Positions 960 to 22,800 are shown, counted from the stretch's first letter. The stretch is 30,031 nt of DNA from Lentimicrobiaceae bacterium (GCA_009776395.1 WRNX01000002.1:1-30031); one strand, 5' to 3'. Numbers and translations are program-made. Notes: a model not told the origin generated them from the sequence alone.

Positions 960-1012
960 AGTGGTTAATGATTAGTGATTCATCCGTAATTTGTAATTTT
1001 TAATCTGTAATT
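960..1012 (-). repeat. Two heptamer tandem arrays in the cysS leader
   Basis: Minus strand: AATTACA-GATTAAA-AATTACA-AATTACG (985-1012), then AATCACT-AATCATT-AACCACT (960-980), ending 3 nt before the ATG. Confidence 0.75.
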
Positions 1013-1024
1013 AAAATTATGTAG

Positions 1025-1032
1025 CAAAAATA
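1025..1032 (-). promoter_or_regulatory. Bacteroidetes -7 promoter box for cysS
   Basis: TATTTTTG on the minus strand matches TAnnTTTG, about 70 nt upstream of the cysS ATG. Confidence 0.75.
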
Positions 1033-1086
1033 TATAAAAAAATTAACCAGAAATTTTTATTTGTTACTATTGTATTTTTTTTTTTA

Positions 1087-1094
1087 TATTTTTG
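1087..1094 (+). promoter_or_regulatory. Bacteroidetes -7 promoter box for the lipoprotein pair
   Basis: TATTTTTG; TTTG at 1060-1063 is a possible -33 box; T11 run at 1075-1085 in between. Confidence 0.7.
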
Positions 1095-1130
1095 CCACAT
1101 AATTTCATTATTAACTTAAATTTTAAAAAC

Positions 1131-1679
1131 ATGAAAAAATTAATTTTAATCTCAATGGCTATTATGATAGCCTTTGCATTCACTTCATGCGGTGATAAAG
1201 AACTCACAAAAGAAGAAATGCTAACACAAAAAAAAGGGTGGATTCTTAACCAAGCAACATGTTCTCCCGACTATCAGCTGAACAACGATGAATGGTGTGA
1301 TACAGATCTTTTGAATGGAGGATTCTTTTTTGATTGCGAAAAAGACGACATCTTCTATTTTAAAGATGACAAATCTTTTGTTATGTCCTATGAAAAAGAA
1401 AAATGTGATTGGAATGAAGCAGGAAAAGAAGAAAATATGGGAAGATGGGAATTCCAAGAAAATGAAACTTGGGTTCAATTCTATATGGGTGCTTACTATG
1501 ATGATGAAAACAATGAGTACTTTAAACTCAGAGGTATTATTAAAGAATTGGATAAAGAAACTTTGAGATTAGAAGTACCAATTAATGAAGATTATCCTGT
1601 TGCCAAATCTAGAATGTTGCGTGGTGAAGTTCACCCCTATAAAGGCACATTTTATTTAATTTTCAAAGTAGCAAAATAA
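1131..1679 (+). CDS. Lipoprotein, probable lipocalin-like/DUF5004-type beta domain
   Basis: MKKLILISMAIMIAFAFTSC lipobox followed by charged GDKE; TKEEMLTQKKGWILNQ and MGRWEF motifs resemble Bacteroidetes lipocalin-like lipoproteins. ATG 1131 preferred because the track's TTG at 1092 lies inside the promoter box. Confidence 0.75.
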   Translation: MKKLILISMAIMIAFAFTSCGDKELTKEEMLTQKKGWILNQATCSPDYQLNNDEWCDTDLLNGGFFFDCEKDDIFYFKDDKSFVMSYEKEKCDWNEAGKEENMGRWEFQENETWVQFYMGAYYDDENNEYFKLRGIIKELDKETLRLEVPINEDYPVAKSRMLRGEVHPYKGTFYLIFKVAK

Positions 1680-1711
1680 TTTAACCAACAAAATCATTAA
1701 AATCTACGAAT

Positions 1712-2002
1712 ATGAAAAAATTATTTTTAATTCTCGCAGCCGCAACTCTTTTTATTGCTTGCGGAAACAGATCTACTCCCGTTGAAACAGTAACCGATGA
1801 AGTTGCTGTGGAAGAAACAACCATTGACGAACCTGTTGCTGATGCACCGGTTGCAGTTACTACCCCAAAACCGACAACTCCGAAACCGACAGTGAAAGAG
1901 GAACCAAAAGTTGAAGAACCTGTTAAAGAAGAACCTGTTAAAGAAGAACCTGTTAAGGAAGAACCTAAAAAGCCTGAAAATAAAGTAAAAGGTGGTAGGT
2001 AA
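1712..2002 (+). CDS. Small Pro/Glu/Lys-rich, probably disordered lipoprotein
   Basis: MKKLFLILAAATLFIAC lipobox; TTPKP x2 and EEPVK repeats. Confidence 0.8.
   Translation: MKKLFLILAAATLFIACGNRSTPVETVTDEVAVEETTIDEPVADAPVAVTTPKPTTPKPTVKEEPKVEEPVKEEPVKEEPVKEEPKKPENKVKGGR
1913..1966 (+). repeat. In-frame 15-bp tandem repeat (EEPVK)
   Basis: GAAGAACCTGTTAAA x2, GAAGAACCTGTTAAG, then partial GAAGAACCT; a degenerate unit lies at 1898-1912. Confidence 0.95.
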
Positions 2003-2008
2003 AATTTG

Positions 2009-2036
2009 AAAAAAGCCCGCTTTTGCGGGCTTTTTT
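2009..2036. terminator. Bidirectional intrinsic terminator
   Basis: AAAAAAGCCCGC-TTTT-GCGGGCTTTTTT perfect hairpin with A/T tails, between convergent genes. Confidence 0.92.
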
Positions 2037-2988
2037 ATTTTACTCTCAACCGTTGCCCCTCGCGCAAAAAATCGCTTTTCATTTTATTCAGTTTCATAAT
2101 AGTGCTTACCGTTGTCCTGTATTTTTTCGCCAATGCGCCCAATGTGTCCCCCCTTTTTACCGTAATATAAACCGGCGATGGATCTAAAGGTTGTCCATTT
2201 TGAACCGCAGAATTGGCTGCAATGGGATCCGTGTTTGTTTTAATTACCTTTCCTCCAATATAAAGCGTATCACACGAAAGTTTGTAGTTGGTAAAATCAA
2301 TAATTCTTGCGGGGTTAAAGTGTTGTCCCAGATAGCGTGTTTCAAAATGTAAATGGTTTCCCCTTGAGCGCCCTGTGTTTCCACCTAATCCAATGGTATC
2401 GCCCGCTTTAACTGTTTGTCCGGGATTTACCAAACGCCTAACTAAATGCGCATAATAGGTTTCCAACCGATTTTCATGCCGAACCACTACCAAATTTCCA
2501 TAACCACCATTATTATAAGTAGATATACGCACAATTCCGTCAAAGGCAGCCACCACGGGAGTTCCTTCTGGAAAGGGAATATCAATGCCCCAGTGGTATC
2601 TATTTCTTCGTCTTTTTACTCCATAAAATGAAGTGGCTTTATAATTAGCGGGATGCACATAATTTTTCAAAACAATAGTATCCGGATGAACAGTACGATC
2701 GTGAACATAATGAAGTTTTAAAATATCAAAATTTGAATATACGCCATATCCGGGCATCCAATTAAAATAGATAAACATCATGGATTGGTCTGCGCCGTGG
2801 TCATCTTCAAATTCATCCACCTCTTCTTCATCACTATCTTCAAAAGAAGTTTCTGCAAAAGAAAGCGTATCGCTTTCACTGAAATGGAGTTGATTGGTTT
2901 TGCTTTGATCTACTTGTGCTATACTTAATAAGGGAAACACCAATAAGAGACAAAACAAGTATGATAATTTCACATTTTCTATAAACAT
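2035..2988 (-). CDS. M23 family metallopeptidase with C-terminal LysM domain (peptidoglycan hydrolase)
   Basis: Signal peptide; HWGIDI (HxxxD), GYGNLVVVRH, YYAHL, HLHFE (HxH); LysM YITVKRGDTLGALAKKYRTTVSTIMKLN. Confidence 0.95.
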   Translation of the reverse strand: MFIENVKLSYLFCLLLVFPLLSIAQVDQSKTNQLHFSESDTLSFAETSFEDSDEEEVDEFEDDHGADQSMMFIYFNWMPGYGVYSNFDILKLHYVHDRTVHPDTIVLKNYVHPANYKATSFYGVKRRRNRYHWGIDIPFPEGTPVVAAFDGIVRISTYNNGGYGNLVVVRHENRLETYYAHLVRRLVNPGQTVKAGDTIGLGGNTGRSRGNHLHFETRYLGQHFNPARIIDFTNYKLSCDTLYIGGKVIKTNTDPIAANSAVQNGQPLDPSPVYITVKRGDTLGALAKKYRTTVSTIMKLNKMKSDFLREGQRLRVK

Positions 2989-3029
2989 TTTCTATTGGAT
3001 TAGTTAGTTTTTTTCTGATTTCTGTTCGG

Positions 3030-3118
3030 CAAAAATAAATTTTTTTCTAAAAAATATTTTTTTTTTTTTTAGTTTCAAAGAACCATATTAATATGTATTA
3101 ATTATTTTTCTATTTTTG
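3030..3118. promoter_or_regulatory. Divergent pair of -7 boxes
   Basis: TATTTTTG on minus at 3030-3037 (M23 gene) and on plus at 3111-3118 (operon starting 3168); T14 run at 3057-3070 between them. Confidence 0.7.
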
Positions 3119-3167
3119 CTTCCTTTAAAAAAAGGAATAAGTATTCAATAAAAAATAAATCAATAAT

Positions 3168-3845
3168 ATGAAAGTTAAAACTTTATTCAACATTTTGCTC
3201 ATTGTTGTTGCGCTATTTTTGGCGCTTCTTGCCACACGTAGTATTTTGCGTCCTGAAAAATACAAATCTTCTTATAATCAACGCGCAGAAGAAATAAAAG
3301 CGCGATTGATTACCATTCGCGCCGTTCAAACCGTATATCGTAATGAGTTTAAAAAATATGCCGGCGATATAGATACCTTAGTAGATTTCGTAAATCATGG
3401 AACGGTACAAATTATCCAAACTTCAGGAGAAATCCCCGAAGATATGTCAGAAGAGGCTGCTTATAAAGCGGGTTTAATTAAAAAAGTGGTGGTCTCTATC
3501 CCCGCGAAAGATAAAATTGTAGAGTCAGATCCTAATGTTACATTAGAGAGTTTGAAGAATTTTGAATTCATTCCTTATTGTGATGGCAAAAAATTTGAAA
3601 TTCAGTTAGGAACCATATCCAGCAAAACTTACGAAATTCCGGTTTATCGGATTGACGTTCCCATAGATGATATTCTATCCAATTTAGAAAAAACCATCTC
3701 TCCCAAAGATGCCAATCTGTTTAGTAAAATATCAAACAGGTTGTTTTATAGTGGATTAGCAGAAGAAACGTCATACCAATCACAATATAAACCGATGTGG
3801 TTAGGATCGCTTAACGATTCAGGTACTTCAGGTAGTTGGGAATAA
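3168..3845 (+). CDS. Conserved Bacteroidetes membrane-anchored hypothetical protein with a pilin-like helix
   Basis: N-terminal TM helix, then RLITIRAVQTVYRNEFKKYAGDIDTL; ends SGSWE. Confidence 0.75.
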   Translation: MKVKTLFNILLIVVALFLALLATRSILRPEKYKSSYNQRAEEIKARLITIRAVQTVYRNEFKKYAGDIDTLVDFVNHGTVQIIQTSGEIPEDMSEEAAYKAGLIKKVVVSIPAKDKIVESDPNVTLESLKNFEFIPYCDGKKFEIQLGTISSKTYEIPVYRIDVPIDDILSNLEKTISPKDANLFSKISNRLFYSGLAEETSYQSQYKPMWLGSLNDSGTSGSWE

Positions 3846-3857
3846 ATTTTTATATTC

Positions 3858-4337
3858 ATGCCAACCATAATCACCGATACTCCCGCTTACTTAGTTCCAA
3901 AAGAATTATGTAACGAAGAAAAAATTCAAGAGTATTGGAATATTATGCACGATAATCTACAACAAGAAAAAATCTGTAAAGATGAGTTAGACAATTTTTT
4001 TTTAATCTATCCTAAACAAAAAGAGGAAGATACTATTCATGAAATTACTGTTATGCATAATTATTTAAAAGAAAACTATTTAGCCATAACAGATGCTATT
4101 TGTATAAATGTTTATAATACGAATTGTTATTTATGGGCGCTGAAAGATAGAGATATCGCTTATACCGGATCTTTTCAATACTCTGAAAAAGAAGATATTC
4201 TGTATCATCTTGCCAATATCTCTCACCATTTTTTTGAAAACATTTCTCCAATCAGTTTCTTTTATCAACAATTATCTTCTGATCTATTGCGTTTTCTATC
4301 AAAATACTATGAAATAAAAAAGTTACAAATATTATGA
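3858..4337 (+). CDS. Hypothetical protein, possibly a shortened DUF3822-family member
   Basis: AYLVPKEL and FQYSEKEDILYHL resemble DUF3822, and the position after the 3168 gene fits; only 159 aa. Stop overlaps the next start (ATGA). Confidence 0.5.
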   Translation: MPTIITDTPAYLVPKELCNEEKIQEYWNIMHDNLQQEKICKDELDNFFLIYPKQKEEDTIHEITVMHNYLKENYLAITDAICINVYNTNCYLWALKDRDIAYTGSFQYSEKEDILYHLANISHHFFENISPISFFYQQLSSDLLRFLSKYYEIKKLQIL

Positions 4338-5167
4338 ATAGAAATATTATCCTGTTTTTTTTTATTTTTATTGCCATAACAACCAAAAGTTACACTCAGG
4401 AATTTTACAGAAAAGATAATAACTATGTGGATTCTGCAACATTTATGATTTGGGGCAGCCCTAATTTTTCTACGCAACTTCCTTTTGGACAAGGATATTT
4501 ATCTTCAACATTTAATTTTAATTATAATGTTGGACTTGATTTTACCTTTAAAACTAAATCAAACTGGACTTTTGATTTCGCATTTAACTATATGTTTGGG
4601 AGTAAATTGAGAGAAAGCCCTGATAAGTATCTAGGAGATATGTGGTTTCAAATTCTAAGAGACAACAATAAAGATACAATTCCCGTAGTATTTAATGGTG
4701 CAGGTAATAATGGAACTAAACTTGCCTACGAGGGAAGATATTGGTACTTTGGCGTTTCAGCAGGCAAAATAATTCCTTTAGACCGCTGGAAAAACTCAGG
4801 ACTGTGGCTCAAATTTGGTGTGGGATATTTTGGACATAAAATTCATTTCACAGACCCAAATAATTATTATCCACAAATTGACCAAAAAACATACCGTTTA
4901 GGATACGACCAACGCTCCTCTGCCATTGCGCTGAACCAGTTTTTTGGCTATCTGTTTATGCACAAAAAAAGAGTACTCAGTTTCTACGCAGGTATTGAAG
5001 TATGGGAAATTTTCTCTAAACCTGATAGAGGTTACATCTTCGTTGGCAATCTTCAAGGACCTACCAGCAATTTAAAAAGAAAATTTAGCGGACTGTTAGG
5101 AATAAAAGTAGGTTGGATTTTACCTTTTTATGAAACAAATCGTGTAACCACCTATTACACTTTTTAA
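4334..5167 (+). CDS. Predicted outer-membrane beta-barrel protein
   Basis: Signal peptide; alternating aromatic/Gly strands (FNYNVGLDFTF, YFGVSAGKII, LKFGVGYFGH, GIKVGWILPF). Confidence 0.75.
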   Translation: MNRNIILFFFIFIAITTKSYTQEFYRKDNNYVDSATFMIWGSPNFSTQLPFGQGYLSSTFNFNYNVGLDFTFKTKSNWTFDFAFNYMFGSKLRESPDKYLGDMWFQILRDNNKDTIPVVFNGAGNNGTKLAYEGRYWYFGVSAGKIIPLDRWKNSGLWLKFGVGYFGHKIHFTDPNNYYPQIDQKTYRLGYDQRSSAIALNQFFGYLFMHKKRVLSFYAGIEVWEIFSKPDRGYIFVGNLQGPTSNLKRKFSGLLGIKVGWILPFYETNRVTTYYTF

Positions 5168-5171
5168 AAAT

Positions 5172-6401
5172 ATGCGATTTCTATACACGCTTTGTATTCA
5201 ATCTTTTGCATGCGTAATTAAATTCGCTTCCCCCTTTTATAGAAAAGCAAAGTTATGGAATGCCGGAAAAAAAGATATCTTCTATCTACTTGAAAATAAA
5301 TGCTATGGAAAAGAAAATATAGTTTGGTTTCACTGCGCCTCGCTGGGTGAATTTGAACAGGGAAAACCTTTGATGGAAAAATTGAAACAGGAAGAAAAAA
5401 ATGTTTCACTTTTACTTTCTTTTTTTTCGCCCTCCGGTTTTGAAGTTAAAAAAAATGACCCTATTGCTGATATTATAACCTATTTGCCTGCTGATACTCC
5501 AAAAAATGCAAAAAAATTCATCCAAATTGTAAAACCTCAAAAAGTTTTCTTTATAAAATATGAATATTGGTATAATTATATGTACGAACTCTCAAAATCA
5601 AATATTCCATTTTATTATGTTTCTGCAATTTTTAGAACTCATCAATACTTTTTTAAGAGTTATGGAAAGTGGTTTTTGCAACATTTGAAAAAGTGTACTC
5701 ATTTTTTTGTACAAAATGAAGAATCAAAAACAATCCTGTTTCAGCATGGCTTATCAAAAGTAACCGTTACCGGCGATACGCGCTTTGATAGCGTGTATGC
5801 CACTGCCCACCAATCCTTTTCATTAGATTTTATTACTTCTTATAAAAGCGATAAAAAATTAATTGTGGCAGGAAGTACTTGGCTACCCGATGAAAAATTA
5901 CTATCCGAATTGTTTCCTAACATTAACACCGATTATAAACTTATTATAGCGCCACATTTAGTAGAAAAAAATCATATTGAAAAAATTATCAAACTATTTT
6001 CTTCATTTTCAGTAGTTTGTTTTTCTGAAAAAAACAATAAAAATCTTGCAAATGCTGAAGTACTGATTATTGATACTATCGGATTATTAAGAAAAATTTA
6101 TAAATATGCTGATGTTTCCTATATCGGAGGAGCATTTAAAACAGGATTACACAACATTTTGGAAGCTGCCGTTTTTGAAAAGCCAATCTTTTTTGGTACT
6201 CATTATCAAAAATTTAAAGAAGCAATAGAGTTGATTGAACGAGGCGGTGCATTTTCAATAATAAAAGCGAATGATATGGCGCAAAAATTATTTGAATTTT
6301 CAAAAAATCAAATACTCTATAAAAATGTTTGTGATATTTGCAAAAAATACGTCGCAGATAATCTTGGCGCCACGGAGAAAATTTGGGATAGTCTATTATG
6401 A
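5172..6401 (+). CDS. waaA: 3-deoxy-D-manno-octulosonic acid (Kdo) transferase
   Basis: WFHCASLGEFEQ, FFSPSG, YLPADT, GDTRFD, GSTWLPDE, IIAPH, IIDTIGLL, HNILEAAVF. Confidence 0.95.
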   Translation: MRFLYTLCIQSFACVIKFASPFYRKAKLWNAGKKDIFYLLENKCYGKENIVWFHCASLGEFEQGKPLMEKLKQEEKNVSLLLSFFSPSGFEVKKNDPIADIITYLPADTPKNAKKFIQIVKPQKVFFIKYEYWYNYMYELSKSNIPFYYVSAIFRTHQYFFKSYGKWFLQHLKKCTHFFVQNEESKTILFQHGLSKVTVTGDTRFDSVYATAHQSFSLDFITSYKSDKKLIVAGSTWLPDEKLLSELFPNINTDYKLIIAPHLVEKNHIEKIIKLFSSFSVVCFSEKNNKNLANAEVLIIDTIGLLRKIYKYADVSYIGGAFKTGLHNILEAAVFEKPIFFGTHYQKFKEAIELIERGGAFSIIKANDMAQKLFEFSKNQILYKNVCDICKKYVADNLGATEKIWDSLL

Positions 6402-6475
6402 GTTTGCAAATGATTTTTTTTAGATACTTTATTTTTTGTTTTTCCTTTGAAGTATTTTGAAAAAACATATTGATT

Positions 6476-6483
6476 TATCTTTG
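6476..6483 (+). promoter_or_regulatory. -7 promoter box
   Basis: TATCTTTG, 46 nt before the GTG at 6530. Confidence 0.55.
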
Positions 6484-6529
6484 TATGATTTTAAAAATTT
6501 CATGTTTATTTGCCACTCAATAAATTATC

Positions 6530-7585
6530 GTGCAATTCTCAAATCCAAACATTAACTCTGTTTTTAGCCTCAAACGCATCTTAATCCCAATAGCAATAGG
6601 AATAGCATTCTCTGCCTACTCTTTATATGCTTCAAAATTTGATTTATCTGTGTTAAAAGGGATCGAAATCAGTTTTAAGTATATTCTATTAGCGCTTTTT
6701 TGTATGGTGTTGAGAGATTTAATGTATATAGTGCGAATAAGAATATTAACTGAAAAACAATTAAGTTGGTTAGATAGTTGGCACGTAGTAATGCTTTGGG
6801 AATTTGCTTCTTCGGTAACTCCATCTATGGTGGGCGGATCGGCGTTTGCCATCTATTTTGTGTATCAAGAAAAAATAACATTAGGCAAAAGTACGGCTAT
6901 AGTACTCACAACAGCAATGTTAGACGAAATATTTTATATTCTCACAGTTGCCTTGCTTCTTTTAATATTAGGAATCAACATTGTACAATTCGGTGAGTAT
7001 TTACCTTTCAATCCCATGATACTATTTTTTGTTGGCTATGCAGTCATAATTACAATGACTACAGGTATCACCTTAGGTATTTTTGTTGCGCCAAAAGGAA
7101 TAAAAAAACTATTAGTAAAACTTTTTTCTTTTTCATTTTTAAAAAGATGGCAACCCAACATGGAAAAAACAGGCGATGAACTTATTACAGCTTCCATAGA
7201 ATTGAAAGGAAAATCCTTTTTTTATTGGACAAAAGCATTCATCGCCACCGCTTTCTCATGGACAGCACGTTTCATGGTACTCAATTTCTTAATATTAGCG
7301 CTCAACCCTGAATTAGGCTTTAGTATCATGCAACAGTTGCTTATTTTTGCCAAACAGTTGGTCATGTGGGTAATATTGTTAATTAGCCCTACGCCCGGAG
7401 CCAGCGGAATTGCCGAAGTGAGTTTTTCCGCTTTTTTCAGAAACGATTTTCCCGAACACTCCCATGCTGCTATAGCAGTACTGTGGCGCGCCATTTCTTA
7501 CTATCCTTATTTAGCATTAGGACTGATTATATTACCAATTTGGTTACAGAAAGTACAAAAACGACAAAAAAATATTATAAATTGA
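6530..7585 (+). CDS. Lysylphosphatidylglycerol-synthase TM domain / UPF0104 (YbhN-like) flippase-type membrane protein
   Basis: Multiple TM helices; SSVTPSMVGG, ISPTPGASGIAE, LWRAISYYPY motifs. Confidence 0.85.
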   Translation: MQFSNPNINSVFSLKRILIPIAIGIAFSAYSLYASKFDLSVLKGIEISFKYILLALFCMVLRDLMYIVRIRILTEKQLSWLDSWHVVMLWEFASSVTPSMVGGSAFAIYFVYQEKITLGKSTAIVLTTAMLDEIFYILTVALLLLILGINIVQFGEYLPFNPMILFFVGYAVIITMTTGITLGIFVAPKGIKKLLVKLFSFSFLKRWQPNMEKTGDELITASIELKGKSFFYWTKAFIATAFSWTARFMVLNFLILALNPELGFSIMQQLLIFAKQLVMWVILLISPTPGASGIAEVSFSAFFRNDFPEHSHAAIAVLWRAISYYPYLALGLIILPIWLQKVQKRQKNIIN

Positions 7586-7633
7586 ACAATTTTTTTCTTA
7601 GTAAATAAACAATACATATCCCAAACTTTTATA

Positions 7634-7641
7634 TAATTTCG
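7634..7641 (+). promoter_or_regulatory. Variant -7 box for the hydrogenase operon
   Basis: TAATTTCG followed by CACC (TAnnTTCG variant), 74 nt before the hndB ATG. Confidence 0.55.
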
Positions 7642-7715
7642 CACCCGTTAGAAAAAAATGTTTTTTTAGTCAAATTATTATCATAAATATATATTAATCA
7701 ATATTATAAATTAAA

Positions 7716-8099
7716 ATGGAAAAAATTAAATCGTTGGCAGATTTGAAGAAAAAAAGAGAAGATCTTCAATCGGCTATTTCAATTCGCGAACAAAGCGAAA
7801 ATATTCAGGTGAAAGTAGCAATGGCTACTTGCGGCATCGCTTCAGGAGCCAAACATGTTATGGAAGTAATCATGAACGAATGTAACAAACGAAATATCCC
7901 CGCCACTGTTACGCAAACCGGCTGCATGGGATACTGCTACGCCGAACCTACGGTGGAAGTTACAAAACCCGGACAAAAACCCGTCGTTTTTGGATATATT
8001 ACCCCGCTAAAAGCGGAAGAACTTGTTGCTAAATATTTTGCAGGCAACGAAATGTTAGACACTGTAATCCCAGTTAATTACGAAAAAGTTGAACTATAA
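7716..8099 (+). CDS. hndB: Thioredoxin-like [2Fe-2S] ferredoxin subunit of a multimeric [FeFe]-hydrogenase (HndB/HydD-like)
   Basis: VKVAMATCGIASGA ... QTGCMGYCYAEPTVEV; 127 aa, directly upstream of the NuoF-like gene. Confidence 0.85.
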   Translation: MEKIKSLADLKKKREDLQSAISIREQSENIQVKVAMATCGIASGAKHVMEVIMNECNKRNIPATVTQTGCMGYCYAEPTVEVTKPGQKPVVFGYITPLKAEELVAKYFAGNEMLDTVIPVNYEKVEL

Positions 8100-8114
8100 A
8101 TCATAACACTCTCT

Positions 8115-12567: not shown

Positions 12568-12641
12568 TCGGGATGACAAGATTCGAACTTGCGGCCTCTT
12601 CGTCCCGAACGAAGCGCGCTACCGGGCTGCGCTACATCCCG
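12568..12641 (-). tRNA. trnP: tRNA-Pro (anticodon CGG)
   Basis: Acceptor CGGGATG/CATCCCG, anticodon arm CTTCG-TTCGGGA-CGAAG, T-loop TTCGAAT; CCA not encoded. Confidence 0.98.
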
Positions 12642-14328: not shown

Positions 14329-14336
14329 TATTTTTG
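14329..14336 (+). promoter_or_regulatory. -7 promoter box for trnT-tuf-trnW
   Basis: TATTTTTG followed by CACC, 30 nt before tRNA-Thr. Confidence 0.8.
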
Positions 14337-14366
14337 CACCCCTTAAAATGAAACATAAAAATGTAA

Positions 14367-14438
<72 letters not shown>

Positions 14439-14512
14439 CAAAAATGAATAAAAACAACCTCTATTCTTATAAAATAGATTTAATAATTTAATAACCTTTA
14501 ATTGATAAAACA

Positions 14513-15700
14513 ATGGCAAAAGAAAAATTTGAACGCTCCAAACCCCACGTAAATGTGGGAACCATTGGCCATATTGACCATGGTAAAACAACCTTAACTG
14601 CCGCTATTACTATGGTATTAGCAGATAAAGGACTATCCGAAGTACGTAGTTTTGACTCCATCGACAACGCTCCGGAAGAAAAAGAACGCGGTATCACTAT
14701 TAACACAGCACACGTTGAGTATCAAACCGCAAATCGTCACTATGCTCACGTGGACTGTCCCGGACACGCCGACTATATTAAAAACATGGTAACCGGCGCT
14801 GCGCAAATGGACGGCGCTATTATCGTAGTGGCTGCAACCGATGGACCTATGCCCCAAACTCGCGAACATATCTTGTTGGCACGTCAGGTAGGCGTTCCTA
14901 AATTGGTGGTTTTTATGAACAAAGTTGACTTAGTGGATGACTCCGAACTTCTTGAACTCGTGGAAATGGAAATTCGTGAACTCTTATCATTCTATGGCTT
15001 TGACGGTGACAACACCCCTGTTATTCAAGGTTCAGCACTAGGTGGATTGAATAAAGAACCTCAATGGGTAGAAAAAATTATGGAACTTATGGATGCTGTA
15101 GATACCTACATTCCGCTTCCTGTTCGGGATAAAGATAAAGAATTTTTAATGCCCGTTGAAGACGTATTCTCCATTACCGGACGTGGTACGGTTGCCACCG
15201 GAAGAATTGAAACAGGCGTTATTCACACCAGCGACCCCGTAGATATTATCGGTATGGGCGCAGAAAAATTGAAATCTGTGGTTACCGGAGTAGAAATGTT
15301 CCGCAAAATTTTGGATACCGGTGAAGCCGGCGATAATGTTGGTCTTTTACTTCGCGGTATTGATAAAGATGAAATCCGTAGAGGTATGGTAATCGCAAAA
15401 CCAGGTTCTATTAAACCTCACAAAGAGTTTGAAGCCGAAGTTTATATCTTGAAAAAAGAGGAAGGCGGCCGTCACACTCCATTCCATACCAAATACCGCC
15501 CGCAGTTCTATTTCCGTACAACTGACGTAACAGGTGAAGTTATGCTTCCCGCAGGCGTAGAAATGGTTATGCCCGGCGACAACTTGACTATCACTGTGAG
15601 ATTGTTATCTGAAATCGCTATCAACTTAGGACTTCGTTTCGCTATCCGCGAAGGTGGACGTACAGTGGGAGCAGGACAAGTAACAAAAATTTTAGATTAA
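14513..15700 (+). CDS. tuf: Elongation factor Tu
   Basis: [49 protein letters not shown]. Confidence 0.99.
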
Positions 15701-15705
15701 TACAA

Positions 15706-15743
15706 ATTTTGTATGGGCAACAAATGTTTTGCTTATACAAAAT
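15706..15743 (+). other. 15-bp RNA hairpin in the tuf-trnW spacer
   Basis: ATTTTGTATGGGCAA / TTGCTTATACAAAAT (two G-U pairs) with an 8-nt loop; ends at the base before tRNA-Trp. Confidence 0.8.
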
Positions 15744-15814
15744 AGGGGAATAGTTTAAGGGTAGAACAGCGGTCTCCAAAACCGTCGGTGGGAGTTCGAA
15801 TCTCTCTTCCCCTG
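15744..15814 (+). tRNA. trnW: tRNA-Trp (anticodon CCA)
   Basis: Acceptor AGGGGAA/TTCCCCT, anticodon arm GCGGT-CTCCAAA-ACCGT, T-loop TTCGAAT. Confidence 0.98.
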
Positions 15815-15883
15815 CAAAGGTAGCAATGTTGAAAACATGTTCATTGCCTGAGGTAGTTGCCTTCAAAGAAAGCGTTTTTTTAC

Positions 15884-15928
15884 CACAAAGTGCGCAAAGG
15901 AAACGCAAAATACGCAAAGTACGCAAAG
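15884..15928 (+). repeat. CGCAAAG-type spaced repeat array (mostly 9-nt period)
   Basis: CACAAAG-TG-CGCAAAG-GAAA-CGCAAAA-TA-CGCAAAG-TA-CGCAAAG. Confidence 0.85.
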
Positions 15929-16286
15929 ATGGTATAACGCAACTTGGAGTTCCACCGTTTACGAAAAAGGCATAGAAGGTATATTATCTGCAAAACTTTG
16001 TGTTTGGGATATGAAAATTTATGTGGACGGAACACCCATTACCCCTTGGATGGATTTAAATCACACTTCAAGTACATTAAAACCGGACGATAAAAAAGAT
16101 CTCATTATTACTTTCGGGGCAGATGATATTGTTGAAAAATGTGAGAAAAAAGCAAAACTGTATTTCCATTCTACCGATTTTTATAAAGAAAAAACCATTC
16201 TTGACGTAACCGTGAACTTTCTTGTGGGGATAGATGAATTAACAGTATCGGATATTAAGGTTTATCCGAATCCAACAACGGGAGAA

Positions 16287-16315
16287 TTACGAGTTACAAG
16301 TTATGAGTTGCCAGT
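16287..16315 (+). repeat. Heptamer array within the CTD coding sequence
   Basis: T-TACGAGT-TACAAGT-TATGAGT-TGCCAGT, encoding LRVTSYELPV. Confidence 0.85.
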
Positions 16316-16351
16316 TACATGGATTGAAGTATTTGATATTTACGGAAGAAA

Positions 16352-16386
16352 GCAGAATGCAGAAAGCAGAATGCAGAAAGCAGAAA
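16352..16386 (+). repeat. Second heptamer array within the CTD coding sequence
   Basis: GCAGAAT-GCAGAAA-GCAGAAT-GCAGAAA-GCAGAAA, encoding QNAESRMQKAE. Confidence 0.92.
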
Positions 16387-16496
16387 AGGAGATAGTAATG
16401 GATATTCGGAATTTGCTTTCGGGAGTTTACTTATTAAAAATATTCACAGAGGCAGGGGTAGTAGTGAATTTTCCCCTCTCTTAAATAATATTCTTA

Positions 16497-17072
16497 TCAC
16501 CATTCTTCCCCATATAAGGCAATAATCTCATCCGGAGATTGTCCTAAATATTGAAGATAAGATTCAACATTCATAGCAAGCGTATCTGCGGAGTATTTTG
16601 CTATAAATTCTCTGTAATAAAATTCAGCATTTTCATAATCATGGAGAATATCAGCATATACAACCCCTTTATTAAGAATGCAATTTTTTACTCTGTTAAA
16701 TTCAGGATAAACATTCAAAATATTATCGAAAATAATTAAGGCTTTTTGGCTATACAATATTGTTTCCTCTGAATTATCAGAGTTTTTTGCTACAGCCATG
16801 GCTAATAGCCCTGCCTTAAAGAGAAATTCAGCCGCCATTGGATCCTCGGGATAAGTATTACAAAATTCTTCCACTTTGAAAATGTATTCTTGTGAAATCA
16901 AAGGATCATATTCGCTTACATTATTCAATGAATCAATTTGTTGTAATAATTGCAGCACACATGTTTGCGATTTTCCCTTTTGCTGTAGTAGCGTATTATT
17001 TGTTTCTCTGTGACAGCTTATTCCCATAATTAATAAAAAAAAGGAAATGCAAATCAATATTTTCTGTTTCAT
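16497..17072 (-). CDS. TPR-like helical lipoprotein
   Basis: Lipobox GISC; FCNTYPEDPMAAEFLFKAG and YENAEFYYREFIAKY helical repeats; lies downstream of def. Confidence 0.8.
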   Translation of the reverse strand: MKQKILICISFFLLIMGISCHRETNNTLLQQKGKSQTCVLQLLQQIDSLNNVSEYDPLISQEYIFKVEEFCNTYPEDPMAAEFLFKAGLLAMAVAKNSDNSEETILYSQKALIIFDNILNVYPEFNRVKNCILNKGVVYADILHDYENAEFYYREFIAKYSADTLAMNVESYLQYLGQSPDEIIALYGEEW

Positions 17073-17074
17073 AA

Positions 17075-17623
17075 TTAATTAAATTTTGATTTATATTTTG
17101 GCTTCGTTTTACCGGAAGCAATATCGTTTAATTTTTTCTTTACAATCATTTTTCTGATAGAAGAAAGTCGGTCTGTAAAAACATGACCTTCCAAATGATC
17201 TAATTCATGTAGAATCACCCTGGCTGCCAATCCTTTAAAATGTGTTGTTTTTCTTTCAAATTCGCTATTAAAGTAAGTGAGAATAATTTCTGATTTTCTA
17301 ACCACATCTTCTCTAATTTCCGGCAAACTTAAACAACCTTCGTTAAAAGTAAAATCCTCTCCCAAAATTTCCACCACTTCGGGATTAATAAAAGCCTCTT
17401 TAAGTAACTCAACATCAGGATATGATTCTTTAAAACCATAGGTATCAATAACAAATAATCTCCATGCTTGTCCTACTTGCGGAGCGGCAAGTCCTACTCC
17501 TTCAGCATGATACATAGTTTCAAACATTTCATCAATAAATTCTTGCAAATTTGGTTTATTAAGAGAAACTTCGCTTGCTTTTTTTCTTAATGCAGGATGT
17601 CCGAATACGCAAATAGTCAACAT
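17075..17623 (-). CDS. def: Peptide deformylase
   Basis: GVGLAAPQVG, EGCLS, HELDH. Confidence 0.97.
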   Translation of the reverse strand: MLTICVFGHPALRKKASEVSLNKPNLQEFIDEMFETMYHAEGVGLAAPQVGQAWRLFVIDTYGFKESYPDVELLKEAFINPEVVEILGEDFTFNEGCLSLPEIREDVVRKSEIILTYFNSEFERKTTHFKGLAARVILHELDHLEGHVFTDRLSSIRKMIVKKKLNDIASGKTKPKYKSKFN

Positions 17624-17638
17624 AGTGTTTAGTGTTTA
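17624..17638 (-). repeat. Heptamer dimer forming the whole ruvX-def spacer
   Basis: Minus strand TAAACAC-TAAACAC-T then ATG; the first TAA is the ruvX stop. Confidence 0.7.
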
Positions 17639-18052
17639 TTTTTTAATTGATTGTAAGTACCCTTGCAGGATAATAGTGGCGCTAATTTTATCAATGAGTG
17701 CTTTATTGGTGCGTGTTTTTTTATTTACACCTGCGTCTATTAGCGTTTGAAAAGCCATCTTTGAGGTAAAACGTTCATCAAAACGTTCAATTTTAATATT
17801 CTGTAACTCTTTTTTTAAGCGATTCACAAAAGGTTCAATAAAACGGGCGGCATCTGAATTAGTATTATTCATGGTTTTGGGCTCTCCCACCACAATCGTT
17901 TCTACATTTTCTTTTGCGATGTAGTTTACTAAATAGTCAAACGCTTTTGAAACACGTATTGTTTCCAATGCATGAGCACAAATTTGCAATTCATCTGTAA
18001 CTGCAAATCCTACTCTTTTTTGTCCATAATCAATGGATAAAATTCTACCCAT
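17636..18052 (-). CDS. ruvX: Holliday junction resolvase-like / pre-16S rRNA nuclease YqgF
   Basis: ILSIDYGQKRVGFAVTD, IVVGEP, DERFTS, IDKISATIILQ. Confidence 0.96.
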   Translation of the reverse strand: MGRILSIDYGQKRVGFAVTDELQICAHALETIRVSKAFDYLVNYIAKENVETIVVGEPKTMNNTNSDAARFIEPFVNRLKKELQNIKIERFDERFTSKMAFQTLIDAGVNKKTRTNKALIDKISATIILQGYLQSIKK

Positions 18053-18069
18053 ACATTTTCTTTGTTTTG

Positions 18070-18142
<73 letters not shown>

Positions 18143-18154
18143 AGTTAGGAGCGG

Positions 18155-18235
18155 CAAAAATATATGAAAATTTGAAAAATAGATTTATAAAAAGAATAAT
18201 TTTTGTTCTTTAATATCATAATAATATTATTTTTG
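18155..18235. promoter_or_regulatory. Divergent -7 boxes for trnT-ruvX-def-TPR and trxB
   Basis: TATTTTTG on minus at 18155-18162 and on plus at 18228-18235. Confidence 0.75.
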
Positions 18236-18288
18236 CCATGCAATATACGAAAGTATTCTAATGCGTTCAATTAATAATAAAAAAAATT

Positions 18289-19227
18289 ATGACTTATAAA
18301 TGTGTAATTATTGGTGGAGGACCTGCTGGATATACTGCTGGAATTTACGCTTCAAGGGCAGGAATAAATCCTGTGATCTATGAAGGTATGCAACCTGGTG
18401 GACAATTGACAATTACTTCTGAAGTAGAAAATTTTCCAGGTTATCCTAATGAAGAATCGGGTCCTGTAATTATGGATAATTTTAAAAAACAAGCATTACG
18501 TTTAGGAACTGACATAAGGTCGGGTGAGATAACTGAAGTTAATTTTTCAAAATACCCTTTTCGTATGGTGGTGGACTATGAGCATGAAATTTTTTCAGAA
18601 ACTGTTATTATTGCTACTGGAGCAAAAGCACGTTGGCTTGGGTTGGATAGCGAAGAACAATATAGAGGATTTGGAGTTTCAACATGTGCCACCTGTGATG
18701 GCGCATTCTTTAAAGGAAAAACTGTTGCTGTGATTGGGGGGGGAGATACTGCGTTAGAAGAAGCATACTATCTATCCAAAATAGCCGCAAAAGTATATCT
18801 TATACACCGCCGAGACAACTTCAGAGCTACAAAAGTACTGCAAGATAGAATATTTAAAACATCAAATATTGAATTGGTAATGGATACTATTACTATTGAG
18901 ATAATAGGAGTGAAAAATGGATTTTCGAGAAAAGTAACAGGTTTACGAATTCAAAATACGAAAACAGAATTGTTGACCGAGATTGCTTTAGATGGTATTT
19001 TTGTTGCAATAGGTGTAACACCTGTAACAGATCTTTTTGTTGGACAATTGGAATTAGATGAACAGAAATACATAAAAACAAAAGGAGAAAGACCACTTAC
19101 GAGTATATCGGGAGTTTTTGCAGCGGGTGATGTACAAGACCCTTTCTATCGGCAAGCATGTACGGCAGCGGCTTCAGGATGCAAAGCAGCAATAGAAGCA
19201 GAACGCTTTCTTGCAGCATTATCTTAA
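18289..19227 (+). CDS. trxB: Thioredoxin reductase
   Basis: IIGGGPAG, GGQL, VENFPG, CATCD, VIGGGDTALEEA, IHRR, FAAGDVQD. Confidence 0.98.
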   Translation: MTYKCVIIGGGPAGYTAGIYASRAGINPVIYEGMQPGGQLTITSEVENFPGYPNEESGPVIMDNFKKQALRLGTDIRSGEITEVNFSKYPFRMVVDYEHEIFSETVIIATGAKARWLGLDSEEQYRGFGVSTCATCDGAFFKGKTVAVIGGGDTALEEAYYLSKIAAKVYLIHRRDNFRATKVLQDRIFKTSNIELVMDTITIEIIGVKNGFSRKVTGLRIQNTKTELLTEIALDGIFVAIGVTPVTDLFVGQLELDEQKYIKTKGERPLTSISGVFAAGDVQDPFYRQACTAAASGCKAAIEAERFLAALS

Positions 19228-19304
19228 TTTAAAAAATGATATGTATGTAAAAAAATATTCAGTGCATATCCTTGTTTGTAACTTTTGAAATCTAATCACT
19301 AACA

Positions 19305-21056
19305 ATGCCCCTCATCACTCCCCAGGACATCGTGCGCCAATCGAACAAATTGAGAAGATCGTTTTCTAAATTGATGATGAATGTGTTAGGATTTAATAAA
19401 TTAAACGATTCTTACGCCGCCACCGCTGAGTATTTGGGCAACGATGTTACTGCGCATTATCTCTTCCAACATAATATTAAATATATAGTAGATGAAACTA
19501 ATTTGAAAAATGTTCCCGAAAAAGGAAGTTGCGTTTTAATTTGCAATCACCCCACAGGAATGTTAGATGGCATAGTTCTCATTGATTTAATTTCCAGAAT
19601 TCGCCCGGATGTAAAATTCTTGGGTAATTTTCTTCTGGGAAGAATGGATGTTTTGGAAAAGTTTTTTATTGAAGTAGACCCATTTGATTCCAAAAGTTCT
19701 CAAAATATTAAAGGGATAAAAACAGCGCTGCAACATATAAAAGAGGGAAACTGTCTGGCAATGTTTCCGGCTGGCGAAGTATCTACTGTTCACGGGTTTA
19801 GAATACAGGATAAAAAATGGCCCAACTCTATGATGAAATTTATTCGAAAGGTAAAGGCGCCTATTGTTCCTATGTTTATGTCGGGAAAAAATTCCCTTTC
19901 TTTTCATATTTTGGGATTTCTTCATCCCATTTTTCGAACCATTCAGTTGGTGCGCCAATTCAATAGAAAAGATAATACTACGGTAAGAGTTGCCATCGGT
20001 GCGCCCATTTTGCCTGTACGCACCGCTTCTTTAAACAATAAAGAGTATGCCGATTTTGTGAGAATGAATGTGGATCTGTTGCGAAAAACGATTACTGAAA
20101 AAACAGATACGCCAAAAACTACCAACATGATGATTGCCCCCATTGCGCAATCTCAAAATAAAGATTTGATTGTTAGTGAAATAAATGAAATAAAAAAAGA
20201 ACACACCCTCTTTCAACAGGGCCCTTTTACTTTGTTGTTTGCACATCCTAAAAAACTTAACTATGTAATTGAAGAGATAGGAAGATTGCGAGAGATCACT
20301 TTTAGAGAAGTGGGCGAAGGCACGAATAAAACGCTTGACCTTGACAAATACGATGAATATTATCACCAACTTTTTATTTGGGATGAAGAGCACGAAACTA
20401 TTGTAGGCGCTTACCGAATTGGAATGGGGAGTGAAATTATTACAAAATATGGAAGAAAAGGGTTTTATACCGATTCTATGTTTCAGTTAGGCAAACCTTT
20501 AAATCCTGTTTTGCATAAAGCGGTGGAGTTGGGACGCTCGTTCATTATTAAACCCTATCAAGGAAACTCCGTAACGCTTATGTTGTTGTGGAAAGGAATT
20601 TTGCAAGTGTTGTTAGAAAACGATGAATATCGCTATCTGATTGGTCCCGTTTCTATCTCTAATGATTATTCCGATATTTCTAAAACATTGATTGAAAGAT
20701 ATATCAAAAAACATCATTTTGATTATTACAATGGAAAATTTGTAAATCCTGTTCATCCGCTACCCAAAGAAAAATTCGGTTTTGTAAAAAGTTATTTAAA
20801 AGATGTGAACAGTTTGGAACTTTTGGATAAACTGATTATTGATTTGGAAAACAAACAGCGCGGGTTGCCTGTGTTGGTGAAAAGATATTTACAATTAGGA
20901 AGTAAAGTGTTGGCGTTTAATATAGATGTGGATTTTAACAATTGTGTGGATGCTTTAATTTTGTTGGATTTAAAGAATGTGCCCGAAAAAACATTAACCA
21001 TGCTTTCTAAAGATATGAATATAAATGCAGTAGAAAGATTTCAAAAACTTCAATAA
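19305..21056 (+). CDS. Two-domain acyltransferase: PlsC-like O-acyltransferase + GNAT N-acyltransferase (OlsF-like amino-lipid synthase)
   Basis: NHPTGMLD (HxxxxD) and FPAGEVS in the N-terminal half; EIGRLREITFREVGEG, DLDKYD, IVGAYR, ELGRSF, LPVLVKRYL in the C-terminal half. Confidence 0.85.
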   Translation: MPLITPQDIVRQSNKLRRSFSKLMMNVLGFNKLNDSYAATAEYLGNDVTAHYLFQHNIKYIVDETNLKNVPEKGSCVLICNHPTGMLDGIVLIDLISRIRPDVKFLGNFLLGRMDVLEKFFIEVDPFDSKSSQNIKGIKTALQHIKEGNCLAMFPAGEVSTVHGFRIQDKKWPNSMMKFIRKVKAPIVPMFMSGKNSLSFHILGFLHPIFRTIQLVRQFNRKDNTTVRVAIGAPILPVRTASLNNKEYADFVRMNVDLLRKTITEKTDTPKTTNMMIAPIAQSQNKDLIVSEINEIKKEHTLFQQGPFTLLFAHPKKLNYVIEEIGRLREITFREVGEGTNKTLDLDKYDEYYHQLFIWDEEHETIVGAYRIGMGSEIITKYGRKGFYTDSMFQLGKPLNPVLHKAVELGRSFIIKPYQGNSVTLMLLWKGILQVLLENDEYRYLIGPVSISNDYSDISKTLIERYIKKHHFDYYNGKFVNPVHPLPKEKFGFVKSYLKDVNSLELLDKLIIDLENKQRGLPVLVKRYLQLGSKVLAFNIDVDFNNCVDALILLDLKNVPEKTLTMLSKDMNINAVERFQKLQ

Positions 21057-21575
21057 ATGGATGATTTTTTTTATTTGGGTGTAATTACCAAAACTTTCGG
21101 TTATAAAGGGCAAGTAGTGATCTATTTAGATACAGATGAACCTGAAAAATACAAAACGTTAGATGCAGTGTTCTTGAAAGATACAGATGAGATGTTGCCT
21201 TATATGATTGAAGAGTTTATTTACAAAGGCGCCAATCAGGCAATCGTAAAATTTGCGGATACAGATGGCGAAGATGCCAAAAACTTACTAAAAGCGGAAC
21301 TCTATTTACCCATGAGTGATTTACCTCCTTTAACAGGAAATAAGTTCTATTTTCATGAAGTAATTGGTTTTGATGTGATAGACAAAGAAAAGGGAAATAT
21401 TGGGAAATGTCTTGATTTTATGGAAATAAGTCATCAGCCTATCATGCAAATTGACTATAACGGAACTGAGATTTTAATTCCTGCGGTAGATGATATTTTT
21501 GAAACGGTGGACAGAGATAACAAAACGATTACTATTTCTGCGCCGGAGGGGTTGATAGAGATTTATTTACAATGA
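21057..21575 (+). CDS. rimM: Ribosome maturation factor RimM
   Basis: GVITKTFGYKGQV, FYFHEVIGF, EILIPAVDD, PEGLIEIY. Confidence 0.95.
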   Translation: MDDFFYLGVITKTFGYKGQVVIYLDTDEPEKYKTLDAVFLKDTDEMLPYMIEEFIYKGANQAIVKFADTDGEDAKNLLKAELYLPMSDLPPLTGNKFYFHEVIGFDVIDKEKGNIGKCLDFMEISHQPIMQIDYNGTEILIPAVDDIFETVDRDNKTITISAPEGLIEIYLQ

Positions 21576-21585
21576 ATAATATCTC

Positions 21586-22254
21586 TTACCAAACAATCTC
21601 TGTTTTTCCAATATTTCGTAAAATATCATTTGTCTTTGAGAAATGCTTACATCCAAAAAATCCTGCGTGCGCCGATAATGGTGAGGGATGCACTGTTTCC
21701 AAAATGTAATGTTTTGTTCGATCAATAAGCATGGCTTTAGCGCGAGCATAGTTTCCCCATAATAGAAAAACCAATCCTTCCCGTTGTTTAGAGAGTTGTT
21801 GAATCACAGCATCTGTAAACTGTTCCCACCCTTTATTTTGATGCGATCCGGCTTGATGTGCGCGAACGGTAAGAGTGGCATTAAGTAAAAACACGCCCTG
21901 CATTGCCCAACGGGTTAAATTACCACTAACAGGAATTGATACACCCACATCATCGTGAAGTTCTTTAAAAATGTTAATCAATGATTTAGGATGCGGCACG
22001 CCATCTGGAACCGAAAAACACAAACCATGTGCTTGTCCAAAATCATGATACGGATCTTGACCTAATATCACCACTTTTACCTCTTGAAATGGCGTAAGAT
22101 TAAACGCATTAAAAATGAATTTTCCGAAAGGAAAAACGGTAAACATTTTCTTTTCTTCAATTAGAAAAACCTTTAACTGTGCAAAAGAGGGAGCGGCAAA
22201 CGCCTCTGCAAGCACCTCTTTCCATGAGGATTCAATTTGAGGGGTAATAGTCAT
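21586..22254 (-). CDS. ung: Uracil-DNA glycosylase (family 1)
   Basis: GQDPYH, AHGLCFSV, LLNATLTV, HPSPLSA. Confidence 0.98.
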   Translation of the reverse strand: MTITPQIESSWKEVLAEAFAAPSFAQLKVFLIEEKKMFTVFPFGKFIFNAFNLTPFQEVKVVILGQDPYHDFGQAHGLCFSVPDGVPHPKSLINIFKELHDDVGVSIPVSGNLTRWAMQGVFLLNATLTVRAHQAGSHQNKGWEQFTDAVIQQLSKQREGLVFLLWGNYARAKAMLIDRTKHYILETVHPSPLSAHAGFFGCKHFSKTNDILRNIGKTEIVW

Positions 22255-22296
22255 AATAAAAAAAATATTATTCTTTCTTAAAAGTAAACTCCATTT

Positions 22297-22728
22297 TTAG
22301 CTATGCACTCTCAATCTCACACCGTCGTATTCAGTGTAATATTGTCTTAATGGATATTTTGAAGATCCCGTAATTACGCTTCCATCTAAAATGTTGTACA
22401 ATGTACTGCATTTTTCACAACGTAAAGTTATTCCGTCATTTTCCACAGAAACTCTTGGCGCGTCAGCATCATCCCAATCGTAGGGACAAGAACGGTCAAA
22501 TGCGCTGAATCCCATCAATTCACCTATCCTATATACTACAATCCCTTTCCTGTTTACGCCGCCTGTAAAATACATGTGTCCACCGTCGTAATTCAAATCT
22601 AAATACATAACATCATTAGGATAAATAGAAAAATTGACATAAACTTTTGGCATAGGGTTATCATACTTTACACAACTATAGGGTAGACAAAAAAATAGTG
22701 CTAATAAAATTCGAGCTATATTTTTCAT
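22297..22728 (-). CDS. Lipoprotein with a degenerate Rieske-like domain
   Basis: Lipobox PYSC; AFDRSCPY ... LRCEKCSTLYNILDGS ... PLRQY. Confidence 0.7.
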   Translation of the reverse strand: MKNIARILLALFFCLPYSCVKYDNPMPKVYVNFSIYPNDVMYLDLNYDGGHMYFTGGVNRKGIVVYRIGELMGFSAFDRSCPYDWDDADAPRVSVENDGITLRCEKCSTLYNILDGSVITGSSKYPLRQYYTEYDGVRLRVHS

Positions 22729-22730
22729 TA

Positions 22731-22800
22731 TAAGATTTAAAATTTCAAGTTATGAGTTACGAGTTACAAGTTCTGCTTAAACCACTAATCACTAATCACC
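22731..22800 (-). repeat. Composite heptamer/octamer arrays filling the clpX-lipoprotein spacer
   Basis: Plus strand TTCAAGT-TATGAGT-TACGAGT-TACAAGT (22744-22771) and AACCACT-AATCACT-AATCACC (22780-22800); TAAATCTT on minus just before the ATG. Confidence 0.88.

Follow-up and report, generated by a model that had tools for sequence, protein, structure and literature searches.

Heptanucleotide tandem arrays with a published polarity at the gene junctions of a Lentimicrobiaceae genome: a fresh example of a known, still unexplained repeat class

Knowledge of heptamer repeats at the boundaries of bacterial genes goes back to 1990, the year in which Mazel and co-workers reportedly described the short tandemly repeated repetitive (STRR) sequences of heterocystous cyanobacteria as short tandem heptamers. 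The units of the cyanobacterial STRR1-3 are CCCCAGT, TTGGTCA and CAACAGT, and the hmw promoters of Haemophilus influenzae carry (ATCTTTC)n repeats. GGGNATC and GGGGA(C/T)T heptamers were reported in Xanthomonas and Nostoc PCC 7120, where the G-rich strand of GGGNATC is antisense before start codons and sense at or after stop codons and co-directional spacers are preferred (Rehm et al., 2015; PMC4692102). Arrays of TAACTGA precede start codons in marine Beggiatoaceae, cyanobacteria and five Bacteroidetes (MacGregor, 2015; PMC4679880), and according to the summary given in that paper heptamers are the commonest long simple sequence repeats (SSRs), with slippage proposed as their origin (Mrazek, 2007). 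The subject of this work is a set of dispersed heptanucleotide tandem arrays located at gene boundaries in a 30,031-nt stretch of DNA from a Lentimicrobiaceae bacterium (GCA_009776395.1, WRNX01000002.1:1-30031; hereafter the window) and throughout the assembly to which it belongs. A first-pass annotation of the window had taken them for the best candidate for an undescribed system; as both the class and the same polarity rule have been published (PMC4692102, PMC4679880), the arrays are a fresh example of a known, still unexplained repeat class and not a new system.

The assembly holding the window (G000; 1.085 Mb in 98 contigs, numbered with the prefix C, 53% complete) was searched with Tandem Repeats Finder (TRF) at score cut-offs of at least 30 and at least 50, and four shuffles of the assembly provided the chance level. 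At the higher cut-off, 123 period-7 and 26 period-8 rows were obtained, with 0-2 rows for periods 5, 6 and 9-11, of which periods 5 and 6 had none, and no rows in the shuffles; at the lower one there were 323 rows of period 7 (44-49 in the four shuffles), 57 of period 6 and 114 of period 8. The window alone has 8 period-7 rows against about 1.3 expected. Enrichment over shuffled sequence, anticipated from the window, was thereby obtained genome-wide, and the predominance of period 7 agrees with the STRR-like nature first assigned to the arrays: they consist of head-to-tail 7-nt units beyond the expectation from composition, as do heptanucleotide long SSRs, and chance is excluded as their source. 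After merging, about 340 loci account for 1.1% of the assembly and 6.1% of its intergenic bases. The main families, counted as TRF rows, are AGTGATT/AATGATT (75), AGTTACR (33), GCAGAAA (20) and GAGAATK (about 20), together with AAAGGAG. A reversed-unit control is valid for the AGTTACR counts and invalid for AGTGATT, whose backwards reading is a rotation of itself and whose abundance was judged by counts in other genera instead. Copy numbers fall off smoothly from 2 upward, and longer periods are likewise in excess: period 14 accounts for 62 rows and period 21 for 49, where the shuffles have about 13 and 2; this excess reflects higher-order patterns of unit variants such as (AATCACT AATCACT AATCATT)n in C20 and (AGTGGTT AGTGATT)n in C9. 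The idea that the arrays caused the breaks in the assembly was discarded, only 1 of 95 AGTGATT arrays lying within 60 nt of a contig end.

Placement was assessed on 860 genes (90.6% coding) called by an open reading frame (ORF) and codon-usage method of our own, the ORF-based calls matching those of the depositor wherever comparison was possible. As had been noticed in the window, arrays concentrate at gene junctions, with 2.5 arrays per kb in co-directional spacers, 0.85 in convergent and 0.5 in divergent ones, a five-fold excess of co-directional over divergent. The fixed polarity noticed there, G-poor before starts and G-rich at stops, also extends to the whole genome: in co-directional spacers the arrays with more G than C on the mRNA strand were nearer the stop in 46 cases and nearer the start in 10, while those with more C than G were nearer the stop in 18 and nearer the start in 44 (odds ratio 11, p 5e-9; 5.7, p 0.006 when the main AGTGATT family is left out). 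Within the AGTGATT family, 50 arrays at 5' flanks are G-poor and mostly 0-15 nt from the ATG, versus 10 that are G-rich, eight of them at least 23 nt away; of the 32 G-rich arrays located at 3' flanks, 25 extend over the stop codon. An AATCACT-type array stands within 20 nt of the ATG in 46 genes, including some with spacers of 140-757 nt, and in these 46 leaders the last 20 nt are nearly free of G and the phase between array and ATG is variable. Both the polarity rule and the spacer preference are those of Rehm et al. (2015). Spacers with two different arrays in series, another trait first seen in the window, are recurrent, AGTGATT followed by AACTYRT being present in six of them, and C18:3385-3533 strings together a stop codon, AGTGATT, AACTYRT, an ATG and a signal peptide encoded by TTTCTGC. 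Spacers that share one gene direction contain arrays of either orientation, and a single spacer may contain both; replication-strand bias is therefore ruled out as the cause of polarity.

The two strands of the main unit have different properties as mRNA. In the G-poor orientation, AAUCACU contains no AUG, GUG or UUG and has almost no predicted structure, whereas the flipped strand (AGUGAUU, AAUGAUU) has an AUG or GUG in every unit and is predicted to fold. The median predicted folding energy from -40 to +12 was -0.9 kcal/mol for array leaders versus -2.2 for other leaders and -6.7 for flipped arrays, in line with the earlier suggestion that the G-poor strand leaves leaders usable in the absence of Shine-Dalgarno (SD) sequences. 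Ordinary, non-array leaders have only 7.8% G. In Bacteroidetes, mRNA structure tunes initiation and AUG is depleted near start codons (PMC6847099), and the 5' half of the polarity rule fits this known mode of translation. The main unit also carries stop codons in all six frames, so that any ORF entering it is ended within 21 nt and the unit is therefore never read through.

Set beside the GGGNATC repeats, the arrays of the present genome share genome-wide tandem 7-nt units, the same polarity and spacer preference and a variable copy number. In contrast, their units are AT-rich and devoid of G-tracts, so that no quadruplex is possible, and they lack the preference for four units that, like a G-tract in each unit, is expected of quadruplex repeats; in addition, many of them are translated and the host is a member of the Bacteroidota that does not use SD sequences. 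This phylum assignment is supported by Pfam matches (FtsL_2, Por_Secre_tail) and by the neighbours of ClpX, and exact look-ups of the ClpX and FtsL-like proteins led to a single ENA sample, whose contigs match the window without a difference across 7.2 kb. The same polarity has been explained in Xanthomonas and Nostoc by G-quadruplex formation of the G-rich strand (PMC4692102), yet the dominant AGTGATT, AATGATT and AGTTACR units obey the rule without having runs of G. The rule is therefore independent of quadruplexes in this genome, and an explanation of this kind, to which we give practically no chance, is ruled out by the unit sequences themselves.

The likeness to the TAACTGA repeats lies in arrays placed in forward orientation a few nucleotides upstream of starts, in the presence of other heptamers in the same spacers and in a patchy occurrence among species, with relatives lacking arrays at the same junctions. 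Two exact TAACTGA arrays are even present in the assembly (C1:29403-29450, 6.9 copies, 2 nt before the ATG; C11:4485-4509, 3.6 copies, 14 nt), and the AACTYRT family, including the window array at 22748-22772, deviates from the published unit by 1-2 nt. Unlike in the published case, the dominant unit is AATCACT/AGTGATT, many families coexist, whereas Maribeggiatoa repeats TAACTGA alone, and arrays feature prominently on stop codons and within coding regions. With STRR and heptanucleotide long SSRs the arrays have in common that several families exist per genome, mostly intergenic, and that slippage has been proposed as the origin; the host phylum and the unit sequences differ from STRR (STRR1-3 units were not present among the 50 commonest of 90 canonical units), and the density is high beside these classes, with about 340 loci in 1.09 Mb.

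Comparison with six congeners (G001-G006), of which 17-40 kb each were sampled, revealed a period-7 excess in all of them (5-14 arrays per sample versus 0-2 in shuffles), while other genera of the family, represented by small samples that were in part picked for having matches, mostly showed no such excess. The units differ among relatives: AGTGATT is abundant in G000, G003, G004 and G006 and rare in G001, G002 and G005, whereas AGTTACR is abundant in G000, G002 and G005, turns up sporadically in further families of the order, and was looked for without success in G004 and G006. Downstream of the conserved end of ClpX, G000 has an AGTGATT array, G003 and G006 have GAGAATT arrays that begin inside conserved GAG AAT codons, G002 has GAGTAGT, and G001, G004 and G005 have no array; the spacer measures 63 nt in G000 and 8 nt in G005. 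The array of G000 also encodes the last three codons (K-G-D) of a protein that ends in QMGEKGD, these being absent from every congener, where the tails are QMGE, QMGEN, QMGEK, QMGG or QMGN. The cysS leader and three junctions of C6, which together with clpX make five orthologous junctions, behave likewise in carrying, depending on the species, different units, arrays of different length or none, with G-rich arrays after the stop and G-poor ones before the start in each species and sometimes with complementary arms. The arrays therefore correspond to fast-turnover sequences and not to old conserved leaders, the condition under which the first interpretation would have had to be abandoned; they lengthen spacers and rewrite gene ends, and their copy number and presence appear to change rapidly between relatives, judging from these five junctions in the six congeners. 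Some congener spacers (L030 and L035 in G006 and L034 in G005, orthologues of G000 C6:5940-6555) are made up of a G-rich array and, behind it, the reverse complement of that array, such as AGTGGTT then AACCACT over about 200 nt, and would form a very long hairpin in RNA or DNA.

The reading we favour, with rather more confidence than doubt, is that the arrays are lineage-specific heptanucleotide SSRs of the STRR/long-SSR class which grow in place at gene junctions and whose survival and orientation are filtered by translation. Arrays would arise and expand locally by replication slippage or unequal exchange, and selection on translation would set where they survive and which way they face; that slippage generates the arrays, and that selection accounts for their polarity, is what we infer. 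Before starts, the AAUCACU strand would be kept because it is free of start codons, almost unstructured and usable as an SD-less leader of the Bacteroidota type. After stops, the AGUGAUU/AAUGAUU strand would survive only away from starts, mostly abutting or overwriting the upstream stop, its TAG and TGA in all three frames serving to end the upstream gene. Inside genes, units that are open on one strand (AGTTACR, GCAGAAA/TTTCTGC, GAGAATK) may persist in tolerant, cleaved or linker parts such as signal peptides, C-terminal domains (CTDs) of the type IX secretion system (T9SS) and charged linkers. Two observations speak for growth in place, namely the higher-order patterns and the fact that clpX arrays begin in conserved codons.

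Several points weigh against this explanation. Local slippage alone does not explain why the same few units occupy about 340 unrelated loci and differ between congeners, nor why the near-identical TAACTGA and TAACTYG recur across phyla; the period of 7 is left without an account, and exclusion from leaders explains only partly the preference of G-rich arrays for stop codons. Moreover, the gene starts used here rest on our own ORF-based calls, in accord with those of the depositor where checked, and slippage and leader function are both read from sequence. Because the set of units is particular to each species, units may also have been copied from locus to locus. It is possible, although we consider it doubtful, that in addition to slippage such copying, by ectopic gene conversion, template switching or an unknown enzyme, has spread units to hundreds of junctions and that the cell reuses them as parts, which may comprise SD-less leaders, all-frame stop cassettes, signal-peptide cores and strands of T9SS CTDs. 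If this were true, heptamer arrays would serve SD-poor bacteria in general as a source of sequence at gene boundaries.

The position of the arrays before start codons could also be that of cis-acting RNA elements through which a trans factor (ribosomal protein S1, a cold-shock protein or a CsrA-like protein) tunes downstream translation, each species' units having co-evolved with its binding protein, as MacGregor proposed for TAACTGA (PMC4679880). The 46 genes with an array within 20 nt of the ATG even in spacers of 140-757 nt, the dominant units that each genome repeats at many loci and the two exact TAACTGA arrays, which face forward as in the published case and lie 2 and 14 nt before starts, are in agreement with such a role. 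Such a factor is, however, difficult to reconcile with several unrelated families occupying the same positions in one genome, with the variable phase between array and ATG, with the same units at stop codons and inside coding regions and with congeners that have no array at the same genes, and we regard it as unlikely.

The first-pass annotation had gone further in viewing the arrays as footprints of a mobile or templated system that targets intergenic junctions. It could be a repeat-adding enzyme or a small transposable or recombining element that would write a few template units into junctions. Such a system would account for a small private repertoire being reused at hundreds of loci, patchy among congeners and in the other families of the order, and for unit identity following the genome rather than the locus, with different units at the same site. 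However, the adjacent arrays show no conserved junctions in the six AGTGATT-AACTYRT spacers, which differ at all six loci and rule out a composite AGTGATT-AACTYRT element, and no terminal inverted or other terminal repeats, target duplications or conserved flanks were seen in the array boundaries that were read, no dedicated scan having been run. Judged from this boundary reading as regards terminal repeats and duplications, the arrays do not seem to possess the attributes of miniature inverted-repeat transposable elements or of elements resembling insertion sequences (IS). The mixing of unit variants in higher-order patterns is typical of in-place growth, and the clpX GAGAATT arrays that begin in conserved codons resemble a local seed. 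Inverted array pairs, between which small four-helix-bundle (IVP-type) or similar genes were to be looked for, do not behave as cassettes either: the twelve pairs enclose ordinary genes, six genes have arrays at both ends versus about four expected, and PF05635 had no match in the 53%-complete G000. Pairs of this sort, occurring at about the chance rate, are ruled out as cassettes, and the mobile or templated origin was not supported.

A further point in favour of an element lies in about 10 of the 95 AGTGATT arrays, which adjoin at one end a repeated, GC-rich hairpin cluster of about 200 nt. Copies of this cluster are 77-96% identical (86-96% for the best copies) and have a modular structure with GGAGTCCC..GGGACTCC, CCGTAGGC..GCCTACGG and CCCCTTCAAA..TTTGAAGGGG, a covarying stem with a GNRA-like loop, and an end in GGGGTAGTTTATATA at a constant distance of about 125-146 nt from the array; a comparison with Rfam gave nothing significant. 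Congeners encode a Y1 (IS200-like) transposase of about 150 amino acids in 1-10 copies (L083 in G005, L085 in G004, L086 in G001, L087 in G006), whose genes, of the type of repetitive extragenic palindrome (REP)-associated tyrosine transposases (RAYT), are flanked by inverted GTAG-containing REP hairpins and not by arrays; none was found in the 53%-complete G000 or in G003. The hairpin clusters are thus probably REP-like sequences explained by the RAYT-type transposases of congeners, and array abundance among the genomes does not follow the RAYT gene count. Altogether, we consider it quite improbable that a mobile or templated system writes the arrays.

Arrays are also present inside genes, 80 of 244 lying wholly within ORFs. 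Thirty-two of these 80 are located within the first 50 codons of 27 genes, 18 in the T9SS CTDs of 16 genes, where they stand after YPNPTTG, and the remainder mostly in charged linkers. TTTCTGC arrays read FLLSAFC, that is, the hydrophobic core of a signal peptide, often preceded by an AGTTACR array reading KLQVTSY, and signal peptides written by both arrays are encoded at C3:10142-10266 (L023), C16:9523-9582 (L022) and C18:3499-3533. An outer-membrane barrel gene has two arrays in G000 and an ordinary signal peptide in four of the five congeners examined, the orthologue of G001 having a heptamer-like repeat of its own at the signal peptide. A further two cases were observed in passing: a 766-aa protein has KKEKGEEEKGE repeats near its N-terminus, encoded in frame by two long AAAGGAG arrays of 8.6 and 17.6 copies (C1:23076-23338), and at C94:325-441 a degenerate AAACCCC array (16.7 copies), with a telomere-like unit, lies in an open frame as PQTSNPK repeats, its composition being unlike that of the other arrays, so that this contig could be foreign to the bin.

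These positions recall contingency loci, in which gain or loss of units that are not a multiple of three toggles surface proteins and spacer arrays alter leader length. The Neisseria opa CTCTT coding repeats and the heptanucleotide SSRs of H. influenzae are discussed in PMC2651432; these repeats are alike in having such a unit in the signal-peptide hydrophobic core or the 5' part of surface-protein genes, whereas most arrays of G000, unlike the opa and H. influenzae SSRs, adjoin housekeeping genes, and phase variation would be attributed to them only by analogy. The 32 arrays at gene starts and the 18 in T9SS CTDs do belong to exported or surface proteins, and arrays of 8-10 near-perfect units are, from general knowledge on SSRs, prone to slippage. 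On the other hand, most arrays lie between genes and have housekeeping neighbours (cysS, clpX and the ftsL-like gene, for example), low-complexity sequence is best tolerated in signal peptides and CTDs, which makes tolerance the simpler account, and the organisms of Rehm et al. (2015; PMC4692102) presented no link to surface genes. A switching function for the arrays as a class is accordingly given little credence.

The arrays read in the window, together with the other features located, are listed in Table 1. The first-pass readings of individual sites were correct in coordinates and sequence. AATCACT and AACCACT are present in both the cysS leader and the clpX spacer, the plus strand of the former (960-980) being AGTGGTT AATGATT AGTGATT and that of the latter (22780-22799) AACCACT AATCACT AATCAC, which becomes GTGATTAGTGATTAGTGGTT on the clpX mRNA strand; the array at the clpX stop does supply the TAG itself. 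The gene cysS, identified by Pfam tRNA-synt_1e, is one of the 46 with an AATCACT-type leader, and the identity of clpX was also confirmed by Pfam. The 16-mer TTACGAGTTACAAGTT is exactly shared by 16287-16302 and 22757-22772, because both sites are arrays of the AGTTACR family. In the protein with the 16287-16319 array, Por_Secre_tail (Pfam) spans residues 84-149. The 12-nt spacer at 17624-17635 is made wholly of TAAACAC units, which give the upstream gene its TAA stop and abut the next ATG. The AATCACT noted before the acyltransferase ATG is indeed there, as a single exact unit that, taken alone, is a weak candidate for a remnant or proto-array. An Rfam scan of 67 kb yielded four tRNAs and no other match. 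Directly 3' of the tRNA gene at 15744-15814, a 9-nt tandem array CAAAGTACG (4.6 copies) occupies 15886-15928, and similar words of the type ACGCAAAG are found near a hairpin cluster on C6.

Table 1. Arrays and other features located in the window (window coordinates) and in other contigs of the assembly
Feature	Position	Strand	Evidence and context
cysS leader array, AATCACT AATCATT AACCACT on mRNA strand	960-980	-	Sequence read; 3 nt before cysS ATG (954-956)
Second cysS-leader array in series, AAATTAC x3.9 on mRNA strand (GTAATTT on +)	986-1012	-	TRF period 7, score 40
tRNA genes (four)	12568-12641, 14367-14438, 15744-15814, 18070-18142		Rfam RF00005
AGTTACR-family array, in frame as LRVTSYELPVT	16287-16319	+	TRF, sequence, translation; inside T9SS C-terminal sorting domain
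AGAAAGC/AGAATGC x5.7 (14-nt higher-order period x2.8), in frame RKQNAESRMQKAEK	16347-16386	+	TRF; same CTD as 16287-16319
TAAACAC x2	17624-17638	-	Minus-strand sequence; TRF row 17623-17638 (TAGTGTT on +)
Single exact AATCACT with degenerate neighbours	19288-19304	+	Exact unit 19294-19300, 4 nt before acyltransferase ATG (19305); gene identity by Pfam
AACTYRT array x3.6, G-poor on mRNA strand	22748-22772	-	TRF; 19 nt upstream of ATG at 22728
AGTGATT-family array, G-rich on clpX mRNA strand	22780-22799	-	Contains clpX TAG stop 22792-22794
Serial 7/8-nt arrays of AAAATTT(A) and TAAATCT(T)	29948-30029	+	TRF, sequence; after stop 29942-29944, up to window end
Hairpin clusters	C6:2298-2496, C6:5965-6176, C6:10104-10293, C14:1907-2121, C92:1516-1707, C48:5858-6020		None in the window

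Regarding the biology of these organisms, the published polarity rule is seen to hold for AT-rich units that are unable to form G-quadruplexes, and another cause is needed. For the 5' half of the rule, selection for unstructured leaders without start codons is in quantitative agreement. As different units occupy the same junctions and each genome repeats its own units everywhere, the site of an array, which would be a matter of selection, is separable from the choice of unit, which would depend on a genome-wide factor. Since signal-peptide cores and strands of T9SS sorting domains are also translated from these units, turnover of the repeats alters targeting signals and the ends of proteins.

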